Virus record (IMG/VR): IMGVR_UViG_3300029928_000010
DNA: 64,000 bases
DNA from: a virus
Reading direction: 5' to 3' (one strand)
Below, in pieces: positions 1 to 55,871 of the stretch. Both the position numbers and the translations under genes were made by a program. Each line of letters starts with the position of its first letter. The stretch's first letter is position 1. Below the pieces are notes generated by a model, which did not search any database, had not been told where the DNA came from, and saw nothing but the letters and a program-made list of their open reading frames with translations.

Positions 1-1035
1 GTCTGTAATCATGATCGTCTTTGCAGCACCAGTCGCATCGTCGCCTTGAACGCTAATATCTTCTCCGTCTCCAGTGAGAGTGAGGATTGGGAAGGCAAAC
101 GCCTTGTTGTTCTCGCAGAGATAAGAGAAAGCCTCCTCGTAGTCCTCGATGTTCTTTTGAACCATAAACCAACAAGGTCCGTTCTCACATCGTGCATAAG
201 CGACAGGAACTTCCTGGAATCCGTGCTCCTTGCTCTCGACCAAGGTGTAGTCGTCGATTCCGAATATTTTTCCTATCTTCACGAGGATTTCCTGCATTTT
301 TCCGTTCTTCGCTCCCCTCTTGAAGCGATAGAACATCCTATCATCCCAAGCCTCGACCCATTCAGTTTTCTCGTTACCCTCGTCATCGTAGTCGTAATAC
401 TTGCGTGCGAAGCAGACCAAGTCGCCTGTCAACGAGTCAAACTGAGGATACAGAATATCTCCATTGTCGTATGAAAGCGTTCGTGTGCAAAACTCGTTCT
501 TCTCATTGAAGAATCCGACGATGGCGCATTCTGCGACCTTCAAGTATGCGCTCACTGCCTCGAAGAAGCGAATCTCCATGTCGTGCATGAGCCATCCCTT
601 CTTGAACCTGTTGAGCAGCTTTTGGTTGTCGTCAGCCTTATTCTCGTCATCATAGTCGTCTCCATCTGCAAGCTCGAACTGAACGTCGTTTCCTGTCAGG
701 TGCAGCAAATGCTTGGTGTGGATGAGTTGCTGAAAAGCGAAAGCCGTGCGCTGAATCTTCTGACAGTACCACTTGCCGTTATCTGGATTCTGTTTCCAGA
801 TGTCCGGGTATTCGGCTTCGTCCATTATCCTATGCGCCGACGGATAGAACTCGCGCAGAAAGTCCGCCTGCGTCTTGATGCGGCGATACATTGTGTCCTC
901 CGGCATATTGCCGTCATATTTGTCCGAAACGACATCGCTGACGGAAAAATGCTTCATATAGCCTTGCGAGGTCAGCTCGTAGAATGGCTTTCTTACGAGC
1001 AGCTCTCTTACATTGTTTACCTTGCTAACATCCAT
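1..1035 (-). CDS. Phage portal protein, first 345 codons; the 3' end runs off the window.
   Basis: Manual translation of the minus strand from the ATG at 1035-1033 gives MDVSKVNNVRELLVRKPFYELTSQGYMKHFSV... The frame has no in-frame stop down to position 1. The start overlaps the terL stop by 19 nt. The three plus-strand ORFs at 46-1089 have antisense-like composition. A position just downstream of terL fits a portal. The portal assignment itself rests only on position and size. Confidence 0.5.
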   Translation of the reverse strand, partial: MDVSKVNNVRELLVRKPFYELTSQGYMKHFSVSDVVSDKYDGNMPEDTMYRRIKTQADFLREFYPSAHRIMDEAEYPDIWKQNPDNGKWYCQKIQRTAFAFQQLIHTKHLLHLTGNDVQFELADGDDYDDENKADDNQKLLNRFKKGWLMHDMEIRFFEAVSAYLKVAECAIVGFFNEKNEFCTRTLSYDNGDILYPQFDSLTGDLVCFARKYYDYDDEGNEKTEWVEAWDDRMFYRFKRGAKNGKMQEILVKIGKIFGIDDYTLVESKEHGFQEVPVAYARCENGPCWFMVQKNIEDYEEAFSYLCENNKAFAFPILTLTGDGEDISVQGDDATGAAKTIMITD

Positions 1036-3314
1036 AATCCTTTTACCTTTTTATGTTTCTTTTTTGTTAAACTGAATATCATCACATAGAACCAAGACTC
1101 AAAGAAGTCAGGAGAGTGACCAACGTACTTCTTTGCGATTTTCTTAGGCAATAGCTTGAATCCCCTATCGTCGCTGTTCTCGTCTCGCCTAAGCATCTTT
1201 CGCTCCTTCTGAAGTATCTGTCTGAGCGGAACCTTGTCGAAGCCGTTGCCGGAGTACTTGCGCTCCAGGAGCTGATGGTCGATGGAAATCTTTTTCTCCT
1301 TAATCATCTTGTAGAACAGCCAAGCGCACTGCGACTTCAAGTCCTTATAGAGATACTTGATACCCTCTTCTTCCTGGTGGTTTGCAGGAATAGGAGCGGC
1401 TTGGTTGTTGAACGGAACTGCGTCCTTGAAGAATCCCTTGAAGTACTGTCCGATGCCCTGCATATCGTAGGTAAAGTTGGATTCCTCTACTCCCCACTCC
1501 CTCAGCTTGGCTTGAACAACTGAAACGAGTGTCTTAGGGTCGAGCCTCAATACCACCAAGTCCTTGCAGTGCCATCCCTCCCAGAGCCACATCACGAAGT
1601 TATCGCCTCCTGTGAAAGCAACGTCGGCGGATGCCCTACGCTTTCCGTCTCCTTCCTGTATGGAATTGTCGTATATCTCGTCGAGGTCTTCCATCTTGAT
1701 CATGTCGTCGCCGGCAGCCTTCCAGTTCCAGTTGGCCTCCAGGTCTCGCATACGCTGTTCCTCGTCCTGCTGTGCAAGATTGGCGATGTATGAGGCATCG
1801 GTGGAAATGAGCTTGATATTCTCGGAAACGTCCGCACGAATGAACGTGGCAGACTTGATGAACATATCTAGATTCGTGTATCCAAGCTCGGCGTAGCTGT
1901 CCTTCCATAGCGAGTCGATGATGCCCTTGCATTGCTCATAGACCTCCTCTCTCGTGTCGCCCCAGTAGATTGAGTCGGGCGTATCTCCGTCCATGAAGCA
2001 ATACCTTATCACGCCGTCTCGCTCTGGGATGATATAACCATCCTCGTTGACCCACCAGTCGATAAACTTGCGAACCCATGATTCTGGGTCTGGGTTACAA
2101 GTTATCCAGAAACGGTTTCTGATATGAGCTGCATTTCGGTTGTTGGTCAAGAGATACTTGAACTTCTTGTATGGGCATTGTGTACCCTCGTCGATGCAGA
2201 TGTAAGCATATTGACGACCTTGGAACCTGTCCTTGAAATCTGGTTGATAAGCACCAGCGTAATATGAAAACTTCAGCCATCCTCCATTGTTGAAGTTCCA
2301 AGTCATATCATTCTGAGACTTGTTGTATGTTCCGAACTGAGAGTATAGTTTGTATGAGTCTGTGATTAGAGACTGCAAGTCATCCTTCTCCTTTCGCACA
2401 ATGACCGCATGAAAGTCAGGATTTTTAATGTCTTTCAAGGCTTCCATGAGTGAGGAGAACGACTTGCTGTTGTGGGTAACAACGAAATCATCTATTACGA
2501 AAAGTGAGTCTGGGTTTTCAACGGCTATGCAGCAACAGTTTCTTTTTCCTATAGGCTTGCAGCTTACAATCCTACGATGTAAGTCCTTATGCCAATAGTT
2601 GAACTTAACTTGCCATTTTCCACTCAATGTTCTAGACATATAGCATACAGAGCCGAGACTATCAACAAGATACTTGAAGTCAATAGCTTTCTTTCTAGAC
2701 TTATATGTCTTTCTCCAAAAGTATCCGTCATATTTACCTTGTGTATTGATAATACTTTCGAGTTTGTTTTGTCTCTCTGAAACAGATGCAAAACCTAATT
2801 CCTCATCAAACTCTACAGGTTTAACACAAGGAACCATAATTTCGTAACCATCTTCAAGATAGCTACTAATCTCACAGGCGAGATGAGGTATATACCTATC
2901 GGTTCTGTCAATTCCGACATTCCATATATGGTCGTCAGAACAAATAACCTTTGCTCCATCAAAAAAGGTTACTTCATAACACTCTCTACCTGGATAGCAC
3001 GACAATCCAAGTACCTTGTGACCAACACCATCTGAGCCAACAACAATATCGCCGTATTCTAAGTCTTTGATTTTTGTGAATCCACTTGGCGTAAGCACTT
3101 TTGTGTTTTCTTCGAGCGGACCACCTCGCGAACCTCCAACTATCTTGATGTCAGCGTCTATTGATAGCATACGCTCCTGTCCGCCACGTTGAGCTATAAT
3201 CTTCAACTTGTCGGGGTGTTTCTTGTCCGCGTCTCTTAGCGACTGGATATACTCTTGAGTGTAAATTGGCTCTCCGTTATCCAGTTTTAATCCTGAAAAT
3301 ACATCTTTAACCAT
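1017..3314 (-). CDS. terL: Terminase large subunit, intein-containing precursor
   Basis: 765-aa ORF. The Walker A P-loop GGSRGG / SKS is interrupted by a Hint domain. The C-terminal half has terminase nuclease-like composition. It is adjacent to the portal gene and divergent from the head gene operon. Confidence 0.8.
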   Translation of the reverse strand: MVKDVFSGLKLDNGEPIYTQEYIQSLRDADKKHPDKLKIIAQRGGQERMLSIDADIKIVGGSRGGPLEENTKVLTPSGFTKIKDLEYGDIVVGSDGVGHKVLGLSCYPGRECYEVTFFDGAKVICSDDHIWNVGIDRTDRYIPHLACEISSYLEDGYEIMVPCVKPVEFDEELGFASVSERQNKLESIINTQGKYDGYFWRKTYKSRKKAIDFKYLVDSLGSVCYMSRTLSGKWQVKFNYWHKDLHRRIVSCKPIGKRNCCCIAVENPDSLFVIDDFVVTHNSKSFSSLMEALKDIKNPDFHAVIVRKEKDDLQSLITDSYKLYSQFGTYNKSQNDMTWNFNNGGWLKFSYYAGAYQPDFKDRFQGRQYAYICIDEGTQCPYKKFKYLLTNNRNAAHIRNRFWITCNPDPESWVRKFIDWWVNEDGYIIPERDGVIRYCFMDGDTPDSIYWGDTREEVYEQCKGIIDSLWKDSYAELGYTNLDMFIKSATFIRADVSENIKLISTDASYIANLAQQDEEQRMRDLEANWNWKAAGDDMIKMEDLDEIYDNSIQEGDGKRRASADVAFTGGDNFVMWLWEGWHCKDLVVLRLDPKTLVSVVQAKLREWGVEESNFTYDMQGIGQYFKGFFKDAVPFNNQAAPIPANHQEEEGIKYLYKDLKSQCAWLFYKMIKEKKISIDHQLLERKYSGNGFDKVPLRQILQKERKMLRRDENSDDRGFKLLPKKIAKKYVGHSPDFFESWFYVMIFSLTKKKHKKVKGLWMLAR
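2469..3119 (-). other. Intein (Hint domain, 217 aa) inserted in the TerL P-loop
   Basis: TerL residues 66-282. Block A is PLEENTKVLTPSGFTKIKDLEYGDIVVGSDG. Block B is CSDDHIW. Blocks F/G are NCCCIAVENPDSLFVIDDFVVTHN, followed by a +1 Ser. After excision the exteins rejoin as GGSRGG-SKSFSS. Confidence 0.6.
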
Positions 3315-20975: not shown

Positions 20976-22301
20976 ATGGCAACAAACAAAAATCTAGGTA
21001 CGGCTGATGCTGTATCGACCGTTCAGCAGACGGACTGCATTCTTGCCGAGGTTGGCGGAAGCGTGAGACGATTGGAAATAAAGAACCTCTCGAAGAGCCT
21101 CAACCTCTCATTGTCCACCCCAGAGGTGTATGCCTATGGTATCGAGTTCGATGTTACGGTATCTTCTACCGCAGCTACTCGCATCGGAAACATGAGCTTA
21201 CATCGCACTCTTCCAGTGCAGACATTGATGAAGGGCTGTCTCCTTGATGATGATGGAAACGTGGTGGACTACCTCGACCCTACGGACTGGACTTCGCAGA
21301 CAAGAGACGGAAGCCGTGGGCAGGTGATGGTGGAGCTTCCAGAGTACTACGAGAAGTTCGAGACCGAAGGCAACAAGCGCAGGGTGTGGATGAGCCTAGA
21401 GCCTCTGACTGGCTTCCACAAAGTACCAAAACGCTACGTGAGCGCATATCAAGCATTCCTTAAGGATGGTAAGTTATGTTCCATCGCAAACACCTTGGCT
21501 TCGTCGAACATTAATCGTACGCAGTTCCGCAATTATGCAAGGGCGAGAAAGAGCGGTAGCACGGAGTGGAACTGCATGATGTACGACGTTCAGCGTGAGC
21601 TCTATTGGCTCTTCGCCGTGGAGTACGCTCAGTTGTCTTGCCAGACCGCATACAACGCTGCGCTTACTTCCGAGGGCTACCATCAAGGTGGACTCGGCGC
21701 AGGCGTGTCATCCGTTAATTGGGATACATGGAGTAAATATAACGGCAATGTGGCTTTCGTAACCAACGGTGTAACAGACACTCTTGGCAACCGAACAGGC
21801 ATTGTTACTTTCGACACTGGTACTAAGAACGCTGTCACCCTTGGCAAGGTTAGTGTATCTCGTTATCGTGGAATTGAGAATCCTTTCGCTCATTTGTGGC
21901 AATGGACGGACGGCATCAACATCTCTGTTGAGTCGGGTGATAGCGGAGCAAGCAAGGTATATATCTGTCGTGACCCTAAGAAGTTCAACGACAGCAAGGC
22001 TGATGCAGAAGGGTATACTTATGTCGGCAACGAGGCAAGAACGGAAGGTTTCGTCAAGGAAATAACCTTCGGTGAGTATGGAGACATTACAGCAAAGGCT
22101 GTAGGTGCAAGTGATAATAGCTATCATGCAGATTATCACTACACAAACATACCTACCTCTGGTTCTACCTTGCGTGGCGTGTTGTTCGGGGGTGCTGCGG
22201 CTAGCGGCTCGCGATGCGGTTTCGTGTCTTCGTACTCGGCTAGCGCTCCCTCGGATGCGAATGCGTCCTTCGCCTCTCGCCTTTGCTTCCAATCAGCGTA
22301 A
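20976..22301 (+). CDS. DGR variable (target) protein, likely a tail receptor-binding protein
   Basis: 441 aa. The C-terminal 40 residues are encoded by the VR (…LRGVLFGGAAASGSRCGFVSSYSASAPSDANASFASRLCF), cognate to the TR 668 bp downstream. Confidence 0.8.
   Translation: MATNKNLGTADAVSTVQQTDCILAEVGGSVRRLEIKNLSKSLNLSLSTPEVYAYGIEFDVTVSSTAATRIGNMSLHRTLPVQTLMKGCLLDDDGNVVDYLDPTDWTSQTRDGSRGQVMVELPEYYEKFETEGNKRRVWMSLEPLTGFHKVPKRYVSAYQAFLKDGKLCSIANTLASSNINRTQFRNYARARKSGSTEWNCMMYDVQRELYWLFAVEYAQLSCQTAYNAALTSEGYHQGGLGAGVSSVNWDTWSKYNGNVAFVTNGVTDTLGNRTGIVTFDTGTKNAVTLGKVSVSRYRGIENPFAHLWQWTDGINISVESGDSGASKVYICRDPKKFNDSKADAEGYTYVGNEARTEGFVKEITFGEYGDITAKAVGASDNSYHADYHYTNIPTSGSTLRGVLFGGAAASGSRCGFVSSYSASAPSDANASFASRLCFQSA
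22173..22290 (+). repeat. DGR variable repeat (VR)
   Basis: 118 bp aligned to the TR at 22841-22958. The 16 mismatches all correspond to adenines in the TR. Confidence 0.85.
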
Positions 22302-22328
22302 GTCGAAGCGACACGCAGCGTAACACGT

Positions 22329-22362
22329 CCCTATACCGCCCGATATTTATGGCGGTATAGGG
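22329..22362 (+). promoter_or_regulatory. Hairpin downstream of the VR (candidate DGR target-recognition stem-loop)
   Basis: Perfect 12-bp inverted repeat ccctataccgcc / ggcggtataggg with a 10-nt loop, 39 bp after the VR end. Confidence 0.5.
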
Positions 22363-22430
22363 GGTAAGCTAAGAGCAAGCAATAATGCGATAAGTAAAGT
22401 AATTTTGATAACAATTAAAACAAATAAATA

Positions 22431-22814
22431 ATGGACAATAGCAATATGAACAATAATCAGGGCAATGGCGAAAAGTCTGACGATGGAAGCCTTGCATTTT
22501 TGAACATTCCGAGAGACGAGAATAGTCGTTCTTTCAACTGCAAGGACGTGAGCCAGAGTAAATTAGTGAATACCTCATTTTGGCTGATTGATTTTTTGGA
22601 GGACGTTCCAACAAGATTTTCCAAGCAGAAAGGCAAGAAAGGTCAGACGCTTGTTATGGTGAAGAAGGAATTGAGCGACCCAGACAGCGAGGCGATGAAA
22701 TTCTTCACAGGCTCTACTGATATTCTCTATATCTTGCAAGAAATCAAGAAAAGGAATGCCTTTCCTCGAAAGGCTACGTTGAGATGCCAAGGAAATAGAT
22801 ATTTCTTGGAATGA
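22431..22814 (+). CDS. Candidate DGR accessory protein (Avd position)
   Basis: 127-aa ORF between the VR and TR, co-directional, and of Avd size. The sequence itself is not recognisably Avd-like. Confidence 0.3.
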   Translation: MDNSNMNNNQGNGEKSDDGSLAFLNIPRDENSRSFNCKDVSQSKLVNTSFWLIDFLEDVPTRFSKQKGKKGQTLVMVKKELSDPDSEAMKFFTGSTDILYILQEIKKRNAFPRKATLRCQGNRYFLE

Positions 22815-22840
22815 CAAAGAATTTAAGGTTGGCAACTTTC

Positions 22841-22958
22841 CGTGGCGTGTTGTTCGGGGGTACTGCGGATAACGGCTCGAAATGCGGTTTCGTGTATTCG
22901 AACTCGAATAACGCTCCCTCGGATGCGAATGCGAACATCGCCTCTCACCTATACTTCC
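22841..22958 (+). repeat. DGR template repeat (TR)
   Basis: 118 bp, the A-containing invariant partner of the VR. AAC/AAT codons fall at the mutable positions. The 64-aa ORF reported here is the TR itself, not a gene. Confidence 0.85.
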
Positions 22959-23114
22959 TAGGGAAAATATTAAAATGTGGAAGTTGCGACCGCACCTCTT
23001 GGTGAAAAATATAGGAACTCAGAAATGTGTCGGTAGGTGTCGGATTATACGCCGACAGTCGAAGGCTCGGAGTAAGGAAGCAAAGAATATTCATTTAATC
23101 AATAACATACAGGC

Positions 23115-24134
23115 ATGAGACGATACGGCTATCTTTACGACAAGATAATCTCCATGGATAATCTGAGGATTGCGGACATGAATGCTCGCAAGGGAAAGGC
23201 TAAATCTTATGGAGTAAAGCAATTCGACAAGGATAGGGAAGGTAAATTATTCGCCCTGCACCATATGCTAAAGGATAAGGCTTACAAGACATCGAAGTAC
23301 GATATATTCATTATCCATGAACCAAAGGAACGGGTGATTTACCGCCTACCCTATTATCCAGACCGCATCGTTCACCATGCCATTATGAATGTGCTTGAAC
23401 CGATATGGCGCAGCGTGTTTACGTGCAATACCTATAGCTGCATCAAGGGCAGGGGAATACATGGGTGTGCAAAGCGAGTGAAGGAGATAATAAGAAAATA
23501 TGACGGTAAGGAACATCTCTATTGCTTAAAGATAGACATTGTTAAGTATTACCCAAATATCAACCACGATGTGATGAAGGCGATAATAAGGAGGAAGATA
23601 AAGGATGAGGATACATTAGGCTTGTTAGACGAGATAATAGACTCGGCTGATGGGCTTCCGATAGGCAACTATATCAGTCAGTACCTAGCCAACCTCTATC
23701 TCGCATACTTCATGCACTGGGTGAACGAAGGGCTGATGATTGACGCAACGGAATACGCCGATGATATTGTATTTTTCTCTGATAGCAAGGATAGGCTGCG
23801 TGAGGTCTTTGTCAAGATAAAAGAAAAATTGGAGGGAGAGCTTAGACTGACCATCAAGCGCAACTGGCAGATATTCCCGATAGCTACTAATAGGTACACC
23901 AACGATGGAAGGGCATTGGATTATGTTGGTTATCAATTCTTCCGTCAGCAGACGTTGGTACGAAAGAGCATAAAGAAGAGACTCTGCAAGGAAGCCAAGA
24001 AAGCCATCGGCAAGGACGTTAAGGAAAAAGAGCTGAAAATGCGGCTTAGTTCTTGGCTTGGATGGACAGAGCATTGTAACGGACGGCACTTACTCCACAA
24101 GATAGGAATATACGACAACATAAAGACATTATAG
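23115..24134 (+). CDS. DGR reverse transcriptase
   Basis: 339 aa. YADD catalytic motif (ATEYADDIVFF) and the DGR-RT hallmark LPIGNYISQYLANLYL (IGxxxSQ). Lies directly downstream of the TR. Confidence 0.85.
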   Translation: MRRYGYLYDKIISMDNLRIADMNARKGKAKSYGVKQFDKDREGKLFALHHMLKDKAYKTSKYDIFIIHEPKERVIYRLPYYPDRIVHHAIMNVLEPIWRSVFTCNTYSCIKGRGIHGCAKRVKEIIRKYDGKEHLYCLKIDIVKYYPNINHDVMKAIIRRKIKDEDTLGLLDEIIDSADGLPIGNYISQYLANLYLAYFMHWVNEGLMIDATEYADDIVFFSDSKDRLREVFVKIKEKLEGELRLTIKRNWQIFPIATNRYTNDGRALDYVGYQFFRQQTLVRKSIKKRLCKEAKKAIGKDVKEKELKMRLSSWLGWTEHCNGRHLLHKIGIYDNIKTL

Positions 24135-42442: not shown

Positions 42443-43417
42443 TTATTTGAAAGGGTTGTCGGATGGCTTCGCTGGCTCAGCGGAAGCATTGACCGTATTT
42501 TCTGGAGAAGGAGGCAAGTTTGGTGCCTCGGTATTGTTAGATGGCTGAGAAGGATTGATTTCTCCTGTCTCGGCATCGACAATGAGGACTTCCTTTGCCT
42601 CGGCAAACTCTGCGTCTCGCTGCTGCAAGGCGGTAGGCTTCTCATCGGCATTGATAATCTGCTCGGCATCAACGGAGAGTTCTCCCCACTTGGTGAGAAG
42701 CTGACGGAGCACGGTCTTCTCTGCCATGTCTTGGAATCCTGCGTACCAGCCCAAGCCTCCACCTTCGCCATTGACAGACTGCTTGATGGCTACCTCCTTC
42801 AAACCTTGCCAAGTAATCTTGTTGTTGAACTTGACCGTTGGCGAGAAGGTCTTGGCGAACTTGCAAACATCGTCTAGGCTCATATACATTATCTTCTCGA
42901 AGCCCGATGTTTCCTTGAAGTAGGCGAAGTAGCCAACTGGTACATCTGATGTCTTGGTTCCGCTCACATCGAGTGCGCCCGTAATCTTGTCGAAGCCCTT
43001 GAACTCGCCTTCGTAGATGGTACCCTTGTTGATGTTGGTGTATTTGTTGGTGCGAAGGGCGAGGTTAACGTAACCTCTTGTACCGATAACGAGGGTTGGG
43101 GTCGGAACGAGCTGACCTGTTGCCTTGTCTTTGTTCTTGAAGACGATGATGTAAGCCTGTCCTAGCTGCTTATTGATAGGCAAGCGCAAACCTGCTGCCT
43201 TGACCGCCTCGCTCATGAGGGCGTTGGGGTCGCATTGCATCAGCTGAGGGTCGGAGGTGAAGAGTTCCATCAAGCTTGTGGTGAATGCTCCTTTGTTCTC
43301 CTTCATCGTATTCTCCAAGAGGGTCTGGTAATAACTATTGTTCATCACCGCTTGGAAGTTCTTTACTGCAAGAGCCTTCTGGGAAGGCTGCTTTACTGCT
43401 ACTGCTGTATCTGCCAT
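42443..43417 (-). CDS. recT: RecT-family single-strand annealing recombinase
   Basis: 324 aa. Core QAYIIVFKNKDKATGQLVPTPTLVIGTRGYVNLALRT… is characteristic of RecT/Red-beta. Acidic low-complexity C-terminus. Confidence 0.6.
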   Translation of the reverse strand: MADTAVAVKQPSQKALAVKNFQAVMNNSYYQTLLENTMKENKGAFTTSLMELFTSDPQLMQCDPNALMSEAVKAAGLRLPINKQLGQAYIIVFKNKDKATGQLVPTPTLVIGTRGYVNLALRTNKYTNINKGTIYEGEFKGFDKITGALDVSGTKTSDVPVGYFAYFKETSGFEKIMYMSLDDVCKFAKTFSPTVKFNNKITWQGLKEVAIKQSVNGEGGGLGWYAGFQDMAEKTVLRQLLTKWGELSVDAEQIINADEKPTALQQRDAEFAEAKEVLIVDAETGEINPSQPSNNTEAPNLPPSPENTVNASAEPAKPSDNPFK

Positions 43418-43925: not shown

Positions 43926-45953
43926 TTACTCCATTACTGCTTTGGCTGGTGTCTCAATCTTCAACTTCTCGTCTCGACTTACGTAGAGGCGTATCTGCTG
44001 ATAGCCATCCTTGGCGATTGGATGAAGGTTGCTCTCACATTCATCGAGTATCATCGGCACGGACACATCGTAGAACTGGGCGATGGTATAGGCGATGTCG
44101 ATTCCTGCATTGACTTTGGCTGCACCATTGAGACGGCTGTAAGGCACGCCATCGTGGTAGCACTCACAGAATGGCTTCTTGTCGCCATCAAGGTTTGTCT
44201 TGAACAAACTCCACTGCACGAAACGGAAGTGCTTGTTTACCTCCTCTTCGAGGAGTGAGCAAGAATGCTGATAGTAGTCGGTGGCGATGTCTAGCTTCTC
44301 GTCCAACTCGTCCAACTGATTCTGATAGGTCTCTTTGTTTTTCTTGCACTCTTCGATGAGGGAAGTAACCTTGTCGTACTGCTCCTTGTTTAAGTATCGA
44401 AGCTGGAGGGAAGAGCATTTTTCGTTGAGCGTCTGGCTTTTCTCTTTCAGTTCGGCGAGCATCTTCTGCTGTTCCTCATCCTCGGCTACAGGCTTGCTGA
44501 GTTCTTCCTGCAATCGGCGTGCTTCCTCGTTGGCTTGCTTGTAGTTGTCGTTGGCTGCAAGGATTTCAGAGGAAGACGGAGGATTTTCAGCTTCCACCTC
44601 TGCAAGATGCTTCTCTGCCTCTTTGAGTGCCTTGTGGGCTTCGATGAGCTGATTCGTGGTCGTGGTGCGGTCTTCATTCAACTGCTCCAAGAGGGCTTGA
44701 TGCTTGGTGATGTCGCTCTTGATATTGCCAGCCAAGGCTACCAAGTTCTTCAATCGCTTTGCCTTGCGCTCGTTGAAGCGGTCTTCGGAATCTCGCTTCA
44801 TCTTCAAGACTTTCTCAGGTTGGAGAGGTTGACCGCAATGTGGGCAGAAGGAATCTTCATCATTCCACTCCCACTGCTCGGCTGACGCTTCATCGTATAG
44901 CTTTGCGCCGTCCTTCTTTTGTCTTTCTAGGTCTTCCAACTGCTGCTTGATGTGAAGTTCGGTGTCGGTGAATCCGTCCATCTTGGCTTGGAGTTCATCG
45001 ACCATCGCCTGTGCCTTAGATTGGGCGGTTCGGGCGGTGATGAGGTCTGACCCATGCTTTACCTCTTCCTCGCCAGACTGCTTGCGTGCGCCTCGCTCCA
45101 TTTGCTCTATTCGCTTTAGCTGGAAGTTGAGCTTCTCACGAATGGCGTTGTTGCGAACCAAGTCTGCCCCTCCTGTCTTGATCGTGGTTACCTGAGCATC
45201 GACTTCATCGAGTTGCTTCTTGGCTTCGGCTAGGCTGCTTGCCAAGGCTTCCCAGTCTTCGGCTTCGGGAAGGGTCTTGTTTAACTCCTGCAAGCGGATT
45301 GGTACTTCATCAAGCTGCTTCTGAATCTCGGAACGCTTGTACTTGATATGGTGTACGAGGGTTTCGATGTCTTGCTTCTTCAAGGCTTCGAGGACGAAAT
45401 CGTACTTGGCATCACCCTCGGTGATGGCATCGGCAGTAATCTCGGGAACGAGCATCTGCAAGAACTTGCGCTGCTCTGCCCATGGACGAGATACGAAATC
45501 GGTGGCTGAGGAGCACAAGCGGAAGGTAACTTCTGGGCAAATGCTATCCACACATTTCTTGAACTCGCTTGCGGTGCAGACCTCATCGTTGATGAAGTAC
45601 TTATAGGTGTTGGTACACTTGTCACCTTTCCACGAATCGGTCAATGTGCGCTTGAAGGTGAAATCATCGTGCTCGCCTGGAATATCGTCAGGCTCGATGC
45701 AGCGGAGGGACAACTCTACGCTGTGCTCGATTTCGGGGATGATGTTGTGGTCTCGGTCGAATGTCTTGATGTCAAGGGCATTGCCTTTGAGGTCGGTGCC
45801 GAAGAGGACGTAGGTGAGGGCATTGGCGATGGTCGATTTGCCCAATCCGTTCTTTCCAGATATAATCGTGAGGTCTTCGCCGAAGTTTATCTCTAGCTCT
45901 CGGATTCCACAAAAGTTGAGAAGCTTAATCTTCTCGAATAGGATTTTCTTCAT
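43926..45953 (-). CDS. SbcC/Rad50-like SMC ATPase
   Basis: 675 aa. N-terminal Walker A GKNGLGKST. Long coiled coil with a central CxxC zinc hook (FCPHCGQP). C-terminal signature/Walker B region (…ILDECESNLH). Confidence 0.6.
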   Translation of the reverse strand: MKKILFEKIKLLNFCGIRELEINFGEDLTIISGKNGLGKSTIANALTYVLFGTDLKGNALDIKTFDRDHNIIPEIEHSVELSLRCIEPDDIPGEHDDFTFKRTLTDSWKGDKCTNTYKYFINDEVCTASEFKKCVDSICPEVTFRLCSSATDFVSRPWAEQRKFLQMLVPEITADAITEGDAKYDFVLEALKKQDIETLVHHIKYKRSEIQKQLDEVPIRLQELNKTLPEAEDWEALASSLAEAKKQLDEVDAQVTTIKTGGADLVRNNAIREKLNFQLKRIEQMERGARKQSGEEEVKHGSDLITARTAQSKAQAMVDELQAKMDGFTDTELHIKQQLEDLERQKKDGAKLYDEASAEQWEWNDEDSFCPHCGQPLQPEKVLKMKRDSEDRFNERKAKRLKNLVALAGNIKSDITKHQALLEQLNEDRTTTTNQLIEAHKALKEAEKHLAEVEAENPPSSSEILAANDNYKQANEEARRLQEELSKPVAEDEEQQKMLAELKEKSQTLNEKCSSLQLRYLNKEQYDKVTSLIEECKKNKETYQNQLDELDEKLDIATDYYQHSCSLLEEEVNKHFRFVQWSLFKTNLDGDKKPFCECYHDGVPYSRLNGAAKVNAGIDIAYTIAQFYDVSVPMILDECESNLHPIAKDGYQQIRLYVSRDEKLKIETPAKAVME

Positions 45954-47862: not shown

Positions 47863-47972
47863 TCCTCGCAGTTGGACTTGAACCAACGACCAAGTTGCAC
47901 GGTTTGATAAGAATGCGTTAAGGATTTACACCTCTGTTACGTGCTTGCTCTAACCAACTGAGCTATGCGAGG
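47863..47972 (-). tRNA. tRNA-like element with a 31-nt insertion in the anticodon region (possible pseudo-tRNA or intron-containing tRNA)
   Basis: Minus-strand acceptor CCTCGCA/TGCGAGG. U8A9. D-arm GCTC-AGTTGGTTA-GAGC. T-arm GTTGG-TTCAAGT-CCAAC. The anticodon stem GCACG/CGTGC encloses 38 nt instead of 7. No CCA is encoded. Confidence 0.35.
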
Positions 47973-54734: not shown

Positions 54735-55871
54735 ATGGGGAAAATTAATTTAAGTATTATTCACAATCGGTTGAAGCGTGGAACGGCTCAAAAGCCTGTT
54801 TCGGTGGAATTAAGGTTCACTTGTGGGGGTAAGCGTAAGTATATCTCCACTGGGGTGAAAGTATGCCCTTCGCAATGGTCTGAGGGTAGTAAGCATGTTA
54901 TCAGATGCAAGGATGCCGAGGTTTTCAACAAGCAAATTGATGCCTTCGTGGATAGAGCAAACGAGGTTATCGCCAAGATGATTGCCAAAGGCTCTACAGA
55001 CCTAGAGGAGATTCCTGCACTGATGGATGGCTGCTCCAATAAGTTTGCTGACTTCATCACCTACTGCGAGGAACGTACCAAGCAACGCAAAGTGAGCGAC
55101 CACACCAAGCGAAGATACAAGGTCTTCACCGACTTCTTGAAGAAATGGGGAAAGATTAAGGAGTTCTCCGATGTCAACGTATCTAACGTGCGTGCTCTGG
55201 ACGAATACTTGCACTCCAAGGGATTAGAACAGAGTACTGTCTATTGCTACCACAAGTATCTTAAGCTATTCGTGCGTGATGCGTGCATTGATGAGCTTGT
55301 GGAGAAGAATCCGTATAACTACCTACCTTTCAAGATTGGCAAAGGAGACAAGGAATTTGTGGATTGTCTGCCTATCGAAAAGTTCGAGAGTATCAAGCGA
55401 TTGCACCTAGAAGTGGACTATCTCGTCAAGGCTAGGGATTTGTTCTTGATGCAGTGTTACACTGGGTTGGCTTACTCCGACCTTATGGCTTTCGATTTCA
55501 GCGAGTGCGAGGAATCGGGCGGCAAATACTATTACCACGGCAAGCGAGTGAAGACTGACACGGATTTCACCTTCCAGCTATTGGGCGGTGCGGTTGCCAT
55601 CCTAAAGAAGTACGACTTTCGATTGCCCTCTATCAGCAATCAGAAGTACAACGAGTATCTGAAAGCTATCGGTGCCATTGTTGGTGTGCCCAAGCTGCAT
55701 AGTCACATGGGCAGGGCTACGGCTGCTACGCTCTTCCTCTCGTTCGGGATGCCCATCAACGTGGTGGCAAAGGTGCTCGGGCATACCAACATCAGGCAGA
55801 CACAAAGATACGCTCGTACGCTCAATCGTGATGTTTATTCGGCATTTGATAACATCGAAGGCAAGATTTGA
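54735..55871 (+). CDS. int: Tyrosine integrase/recombinase (Bacteroides type)
   Basis: 378 aa. C-terminal catalytic region with HxxR (HSHMGRAT) and TQRYAR containing the nucleophilic Tyr. N-terminal SAM-like DNA-binding region. Confidence 0.85.
   Translation: MGKINLSIIHNRLKRGTAQKPVSVELRFTCGGKRKYISTGVKVCPSQWSEGSKHVIRCKDAEVFNKQIDAFVDRANEVIAKMIAKGSTDLEEIPALMDGCSNKFADFITYCEERTKQRKVSDHTKRRYKVFTDFLKKWGKIKEFSDVNVSNVRALDEYLHSKGLEQSTVYCYHKYLKLFVRDACIDELVEKNPYNYLPFKIGKGDKEFVDCLPIEKFESIKRLHLEVDYLVKARDLFLMQCYTGLAYSDLMAFDFSECEESGGKYYYHGKRVKTDTDFTFQLLGGAVAILKKYDFRLPSISNQKYNEYLKAIGAIVGVPKLHSHMGRATAATLFLSFGMPINVVAKVLGHTNIRQTQRYARTLNRDVYSAFDNIEGKI

Follow-up and report, generated by a model that had tools for sequence, protein, structure and literature searches.

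A probable class 3 intein beginning with proline in the Walker A loop of a gut phage large terminase

Class 3 inteins were defined by Tori et al. (2010; PMC2807308) on the 'DnaB' intein of mycobacteriophage Bethlehem, which begins with proline. Its N-terminus was confirmed by protein sequencing, and it splices efficiently in a reaction that requires Cys320, His65 and Trp67 (PMC2807308). The class is marked by His and Trp in block B (B:10 and B:12), Cys at F:4 and Thr-His-Asn in block G (G:5–7) (PMC2807308, PMC5050341), the Trp, Cys and Thr forming the WCT triplet, and its members occur in phage terminase large subunits (TerL), mostly in P-loops (PMC2807308). A 2025 survey of actinobacteriophages listed 287 class 3 inteins and, with both classes counted, 293 inteins in TerL; inteins have been noted in TerL of gut crAss-like phages as well. 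Here we examine a 217 amino acid (aa) insert in the TerL gene of IMG/VR virus record IMGVR_UViG_3300029928_000010, of which the whole 64,000-nucleotide stretch that was analysed is called the window. Its sequence and that of its homologues make it very likely that the insert is a genuine class 3 intein, probably active, which splits the Walker A loop of TerL.

The Bethlehem intein was located in its genome through the published flanks, VSQDQ before it and TKNTF after it. It is 341 aa long, carries Ser62, His65, Trp67, Cys320 and Asn341 as published, and sits in gp11 (AY500153.1, 7260-9971; our locus L009), the open reading frame (ORF) that directly precedes the portal gene. Once spliced, the gp11 product carries a TerL_nuclease domain, and no intein was found in the annotated Bethlehem DnaB-like gene (gp62, 273 aa). 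The prototype 'MP-Be DnaB' intein lies in the large terminase and not in the DnaB gene; Kelley et al. (2016; PMC5050341), who showed both splicing and endonuclease activity, named it Bethlehem TerL1-c.

BLASTP aligns the window intein with that of Bethlehem at 43% identity over residues 1–68 (E 9e-14; PLEENTKVLTPSGF against PLALNTEVPTPSGW), and Pro1, the His, Trp and Cys and the terminal Thr-His-Asn all fall in register. The two share Pro1, Ser B:7, His B:10, Trp B:12, Cys F:4, Thr-His-Asn, a hydroxyl residue at +1 and a phage large terminase as host. They differ in content, since the 341 aa of the Bethlehem intein include a complete, active LAGLIDADG endonuclease whereas the 217 aa of the window intein include what appears to be a dead half-endonuclease. 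They differ also in location: the former interrupts a Terminase_1-type TerL outside the P-loop, between Gln-1 and Thr+1, and the latter lies inside the Walker A loop of a Terminase_6-type TerL, between Gly-1 and Ser+1. The DnaB1 mini-inteins of Mycobacterium smegmatis (Msm) and M. chimaera (Mch) (6BS8, 6RIX, 6RIY) likewise align at the WCT positions and closely resemble the window intein in block F, RCVEVDNP against CCIAVENP, but they begin with Ala, lack an inserted domain and occupy the classic insertion point of a bacterial helicase.

The third comparison is with the P-loop class 3 inteins, inserted at GK/(S/T), of other Terminase_6-type TerL proteins (slashes mark insertion points here and below). 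That of Parabacteroides phage PF672P1, for example, shares with the window intein the GGxxGG loop, the WCT triplet and a Bacteroidota phage host. Inteins at this classic site come after the Lys, and Ala is their usual first residue, as in the relative that reads GGSRGGGK/A.../S; the insertion point of the window intein lies two residues further upstream and precedes a Ser that stands in for the canonical Walker A Gly. The window-type insertion point recurs elsewhere, for example in a protein reading ASRGR/A.../SKSY (P0141). Two of the classic-site inteins are unannotated in their records: an Ala1 class 3 intein at GGGK/T of PF672P1 (L002), in a 'hypothetical protein' that is TerL, and an apparent Arg1 class 3 intein at GGGK/S in an 'AAA domain protein' of Dulem virus 38 (L003).

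Boundaries of the insert in TerL

The host gene and the parts into which the insert divides it are as follows.

1017..3314, minus strand: TerL precursor ORF, 765 aa including the intein (ORF list, Pfam Terminase_6N)
3120..3314, minus strand: N-extein, aa 1-65 (translation; joined to SKS in intein-free alleles)
3120-3137, minus strand: GGSRGG, first part of Walker A and end of the N-extein (translation)
2469..3119, minus strand: putative class 3 intein, 217 aa, Pro1 to Asn217 (intein-free homologues, PDB matches, AlphaFold2, Foldseek, third-position GC content)
1017..2468, minus strand: C-extein (translation; intein-free alleles read GGSRGGSKSF)
2460-2468, minus strand: SKS, rest of Walker A, at the start of the C-extein
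2466-2468, minus strand: Ser+1, putative nucleophile, at the start of the C-extein

The precursor has the N-terminal ATPase domain and Walker A loop of a Terminase_6-type TerL. Terminase_6N (PF03237) covers ORF residues 284-539 (E 1e-13; Pfam), and on contigs with the identical protein an SPP1-type portal gene lies directly downstream. The protein is 59% identical to the annotated TerL of the cultured, intein-free Bacteroides phage LoVEphage, and the exact 765-aa sequence is present on 24 independent metagenomic contigs from different samples.

ORF residues 66-282 correspond exactly to window positions 2469..3119 and read PLEENTKVLTP...CSDDHIWNV...NCCCIAVENP...DFVVTHN between GGSRGG and SKS. 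A preliminary description of the window, made from the letters alone, had reported a Walker A motif split by an insert at these positions, and translation bears out both the coordinates and every motif that it quoted. With TerL spliced in silico as query, 1,465 homologues were found, and the best 120 were examined. In 50 of them the insert is absent: these proteins are 535-556 aa long, share 80-95% extein identity with the window TerL and read GGSRGG(S/G)KSF without interruption. The other 70 carry an insert at exactly the window's point. Counting the window protein, all 71 intein-bearing alleles read P...HN between GG and SKS, with a Pro-Leu start and an intact reading frame.

Because the flanking residues differ at both junctions (Gly/Pro and Asn/Ser), the boundary cannot slide, and the intein is fixed without ambiguity as Pro1 through Thr-His-Asn217, followed by Ser+1. 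Its precise in-frame removal restores the host protein sequence of the intein-free alleles. Position 1 had been assigned to Pro from an alignment of block A, with the suggestion that intein-free terL alleles be sought to define the insertion point; the 50 found define it exactly and so prove Pro1 independently of the block alignment. They also bear out the C-terminal junction as it was first read, VVTHN and then Ser, in their GGSRGG/SKS.

Rejoining the exteins gives the loop GSRGGSKS, with Ser at the usual Walker A Gly position before Lys. Failure of the exteins to rejoin into a working loop had been named as a way in which the intein reading could fail. The Ser-containing loop is, however, the native state of this TerL family and is seen in cultured, intein-free LoVEphage, whose P-loop is GGCRGGSKT; the rejoined loop equals that of cultured, intein-free phages of the LoVEphage type.

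Empty and occupied sites also alternate among bacterial genomes. An empty allele lies in the genome of Segatella copri HDD04, as in some others, and the 217-aa intein is present in a Segatella copri metagenome-assembled genome and in the isolate Leyella stercorea MSK.21.24; a 369-aa intein occupies the TerL site on a contig binned as Barnesiella. Two details of the +1 position were also recorded. For Ser+1 the window allele has the codon AGC (within 2460-2468, minus strand), whereas an intein-free allele of 94% identity (L004, 3196-3204) has TCT; these two serine codon families are more than one base change apart. One intein-free allele (L013; CAVJZZ010000056.1, near locus position 2983) reads GGSRGG/AKSF, with Ala in place of the Ser+1 nucleophile; from an allele of this kind an intein could not be spliced, which might leave the allele refractory to invasion.

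Class 3 signature, fold and relatives

The conserved blocks of the insert lie at the following positions.

3081..3119, minus strand: block A, PLEENTKVLTPSG, aligning with PLALNTEVPTPSG of the Bethlehem prototype and with C1 of gp41-1 and A1 of Msm DnaB1
3117-3119, minus strand: Pro1 codon (Pro1 and Leu2 are invariant in the family)
2916..2957, minus strand: block B, GAKVICSDDHIWNV, with Ser61 (B:7), His64 (B:10) and Trp66 (B:12)
2928-2930, minus strand: His64 (B:10)
2922-2924, minus strand: Trp66 (B:12)
2511..2555, minus strand: block F, PIGKRNCCCIAVENP, with Cys197 (F:4) and Cys195
2529-2531, minus strand: Cys197 (F:4), predicted branch nucleophile
2469..2489, minus strand: block G, DFVVTHN, with Thr215 (G:5), His216 and Asn217

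The insert resembles inteins in both sequence and predicted fold. Its significant phmmer matches among PDB sequences are inteins only (E 4.5e-10 to 1.3e-7), namely two gp41-1 intein chains and three chains of the class 3 Msm and Mch DnaB1 inteins (6BS8, 6RIX/6RIY), and query position 1 stands in register with position 1 of the gp41-1 and DnaB1 inteins. An AlphaFold2 model of the intein, built without exteins on an alignment of 21 family members, has a mean predicted local distance difference test score of 95.3. In the PDB, Foldseek matches the model best to 6riy, 6bs8 and 6rix, with template modelling scores of 0.78-0.88 normalized to the target (TMt), and the top 50 matches are all inteins or Hint domains, at probability 1.00. 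PI-SceI-type inteins span the Hint part together with the inserted domain (TMq, normalized to the query, 0.70-0.74).

Conservation falls on the expected residues. Family inteins that share 32-70% identity with the window copy agree without exception at P1, L2, G13, I17, G55, S61, D63, H64, W66, G191, C195, C197, F207, T215, H216 and N217. When the alignment is widened to include the Ala1 intein of PF672P1 and the apparent Arg1 intein of Dulem virus 38, H64, W66, C197, T215, H216 and N217 are still invariant. Ser61, His64 and Trp66 correspond to Ser62, His65 and Trp67 of the Bethlehem intein, Cys197 to its Cys320 and to Cys118 of Msm DnaB1, and Thr215-His216-Asn217 to its THN at 339-341. The insert combines an intein fold that has blocks A, B, F and G with the B:12 Trp, F:4 Cys and G:5 Thr followed by His-Asn, and it has Ser at +1 and none of Cys, Ser or Thr at position 1. 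The WCT signature proposed in the preliminary description (Trp two residues after the block B His, Cys in block F, THN) holds across diverged relatives. Its block F entry, the Cys residues of NCCCIAV, can be refined: the Cys residues are there, the third of them (Cys197) is F:4, and the middle one, position 196, varies among C, Y and R. Cys195 is invariant within this TerL family and is Cys in 40 of 180 wider relatives.

Those relatives come from a profile search run exhaustively over 1.84 billion representative proteins. It returned 17,737 relatives at E<=0.001. Among the 216 full-length intein copies in the best 150 of these proteins, 198 have W, C and T together. In the 180 WCT copies with a well-anchored block A, the apparent position 1, which is extrapolated from the profile alignment and not from empty alleles, is Ala in 106, Pro in 32 (~18%), Ser in 9, Gly in 9 and Met in 8; at +1 stand Thr (107 copies), Ser (64) and Cys (9). 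Among class 3 inteins Pro1 is nothing out of the ordinary: the prototype has it, as do, apparently, these 32 relatives, and the preliminary description overstated its rarity. When all six frames of the window were scanned with a profile, no other intein came to light.

Proposed splicing route and rival explanations

By analogy with the tested prototype, splicing would follow the class 3 pathway. One 765-aa precursor chain would be translated, and the Hint domain would then fold. The thiol of Cys197 would attack the amide between Gly(-1) and Pro1, assisted by His64 and Trp66, and give a branched thioester on Cys197. The N-extein would pass to the hydroxyl of Ser+1, cyclization of Asn217 would release the intein, and an O-to-N shift would restore GGSRGG-SKS, the native ATP-binding loop. 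The junction peptide predicted for spliced TerL is ...VGGSRGGSKSFSSL...

Several points weigh against this account. Pfam Hint models match at sub-threshold scores (E 0.08-0.17), and Pfam and NCBIfam searches with the intein alone give sub-threshold Hint matches only. The case for splicing activity is built on conservation and on the essential nature of the interrupted P-loop. Since the AlphaFold2 model has no exteins, it contains no geometry between Cys197 and the scissile bond. Finally, transfer to Ser+1 would give an oxyester rather than a thioester, yet this is normal for the class, with Thr or Ser at +1 in 171 of the 180 relatives. In favour of activity, the identical precursor on 24 contigs from different samples argues for an allele that a viable phage or prophage carries and that therefore splices.

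The alternatives concern the boundary, the chemistry and the activity of the insert. The prior that most inteins begin with Cys or Ser would favour a standard class 1 intein that in truth begins at a nearby Cys, Ser or Thr, Pro1 being the product of a misplaced boundary. Positive evidence for it is lacking, and the empty alleles (GGSRGG/SKS), the junctions that cannot slide and the alignment of Pro1 with position 1 of the gp41-1, Msm DnaB1 and Bethlehem inteins leave it practically no chance. We rejected class 1 membership, position 1 being Pro according to the empty alleles. A class 2-like route, with Ser+1 attacking the Gly-Pro amide directly, as in KlbA, and no branch on the block F Cys, would accommodate the missing nucleophile at position 1, a feature shared with class 2. 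That class, however, consists of archaeal KlbA inteins with Ala1 and Cys+1 and without WCT (PMC2807308). The triplet is invariant in the window family, and the block F Cys is required in the nearest tested homologue, that of Bethlehem, so we regard a direct attack as very unlikely here. Membership of class 2 was itself rejected, given Pro1, Ser+1 and the WCT triplet.

The remaining alternative is a decayed insert that does not splice, in a terminase pseudogene or retained in the mature protein of a defective prophage. A clearly decayed endonuclease domain, a prophage-like context with an integrase and a related record truncated to a 268-aa ORF speak for such decay. Yet every splicing residue is invariant down to 32% identity, 71 alleles keep the reading frame intact, the identical protein recurs on the 24 contigs, and ATP binding should be lost if a domain of 217 aa stayed within Walker A. 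The size class has 29 distinct variants, all 217 aa long and free of stops and frameshifts, and the inserted domain retains 58% identity, against 66-79% in the Hint parts, which indicates purifying selection. We judge decay highly improbable, and take the insert to be a class 3 intein that probably splices through a branched thioester on Cys197. The truncated record (P0121, on an ENA contig) runs from the N-extein end through a 217-aa intein and SKSFSSLMEVLKDIKNPDF into unrelated sequence, followed by a stop, and reflects either a frameshift in the allele or a fault in the assembly.

An extension of the class 3 reading is that the Gly/Ser insertion point and the Cys195-x-Cys197 pair mark a distinct sublineage with conditional splicing, for instance a reversible block by zinc or oxidation. 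Such a block has been reported for the mycobacterial DnaB1 class 3 intein. We consider this unlikely for the window intein; if true, it would provide a post-translational switch on DNA packaging for a prophage in an anaerobic gut host.

Central domain, allele states and phage host

The middle of the intein holds an inserted domain with the following landmarks.

2586..2888, minus strand: inserted domain, intein aa 78-178 (101 aa), apparently a degenerate second LAGLIDADG half (BLASTP, alignment, model)
2733-2762, minus strand: LESIINTQGK, apparent motif remnant
2649-2681, minus strand: DFKYLVDSLGS

Intein residues 110-217 match the 369-aa intein that occupies this site in another allele (P0030; BLASTP E 5e-14), and residues 110-163 align with its second LAGLIDADG half-domain. 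That region of the 369-aa intein belongs to PF14528/PF05204 (PF14528 E 9e-11); the inserted domain of the window intein has no Pfam match. GLMDTDG of the longer intein has become SIINTQG in the window copy, with the acidic catalytic residues lost, and the first LAGLIDADG half-domain is absent. The AlphaFold2 model folds the inserted domain as a compact helix-strand unit. From its sequence, the central domain appears to be the dead half of a LAGLIDADG homing endonuclease, and it is probably kept as a structural part of the intein fold. An active enzyme of this type has two motifs, or is a dimer of one, and catalytic acidic residues; the window copy has a single half-domain without those residues, and an active homing endonuclease was rejected for it. 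The window intein is probably unable to home by itself. The most likely reason for its persistence is that nothing short of a precise deletion would give back a functional terminase.

The same site occurs in five states among the best 120 of the 1,465 homologues, on exteins 83-96% identical to those of the window: empty, a mini-intein of 137-139 aa, and inteins of 217 aa, of 222-226 aa and of 362-369 aa, the last with both LAGLIDADG motifs. Similarity of the exteins is uncoupled from that of the inteins. One allele (P0002) has 96.5% extein identity and 45% intein identity to the window, P0030 has 94% and 40%, and empty alleles reach ~94% extein identity. GC content at third codon positions falls from 0.62 in the C-extein to 0.34 in the intein, a contrast that suggests a foreign origin of the intein. 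Together, the uncoupled similarities, the difference in composition and the coexisting states point to repeated gain, loss or replacement, and the states match the stages that the homing-cycle model predicts. Clusters of intein-bearing alleles have hundreds to thousands of member sequences; with the recurrent identical precursor, the constant length, the absence of stops and the native rejoined loop, this suggests an intein in use.

Other genes of the window place its phage. Those that bear on its way of life are listed here.

42443-43417, minus strand: RecT recombinase
43926-45953, minus strand: SMC/AAA-type ATPase
54735-55871, plus strand: tyrosine integrase

TerL genes 86-94% identical to that of the window lie in the complete Segatella copri HDD04 chromosome and the Leyella stercorea MSK.21.24 assembly, among others. 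With the recombinase, the ATPase and the integrase, they indicate that the TerL host is a temperate phage, present as prophage in gut Prevotellaceae (Segatella/Leyella), and related to LoVEphage.

Two further features of the window were recorded.

20976-24134, plus strand: diversity-generating retroelement
47863-47972, minus strand: tRNA-like gene, 110 nt

The retroelement has a variable repeat at 22167-22290, at the 3' end of ORF 20976-22301, and a template repeat at 22835-22958; the two are 85% identical, and 16 of their 18 mismatches fall at template adenines. An Rfam RT-17 RNA (22988-23087, 56 bits) and then a reverse transcriptase ORF (23115-24134; RVT_1, E 2e-14) follow. The tRNA-like gene matches the Rfam tRNA model with 46 bits, which puts 51 nt in the anticodon arm in place of the expected 15; default ARAGORN misses it, and the intron option calls tRNA-Leu(CAA) with a 31-nt anticodon-loop insert.

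Class 3 inteins are common in phage TerL, and the window element is a new example rather than a new mechanism; the current understanding of splicing mechanisms is unchanged by it. Its novelties are modest, namely Prevotellaceae prophages as host lineage and an insertion point that precedes the classic Lys/Thr P-loop site by two residues. A limited literature search, which is no proof of absence, turned up no publication on this family of inteins. Standard pipelines see Terminase_6N only and miss the intein, since the Pfam Hint models stay below threshold, and databases therefore give the wrong size for TerL in an abundant group of Prevotellaceae prophages of the human gut. The compact Pro1 class 3 mini-inteins of 137-139 aa could be tried as protein-engineering tools. 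At one site and in near-identical exteins, the series from empty allele through full endonuclease and half-decayed copy to mini-intein offers convenient material on the homing cycle.

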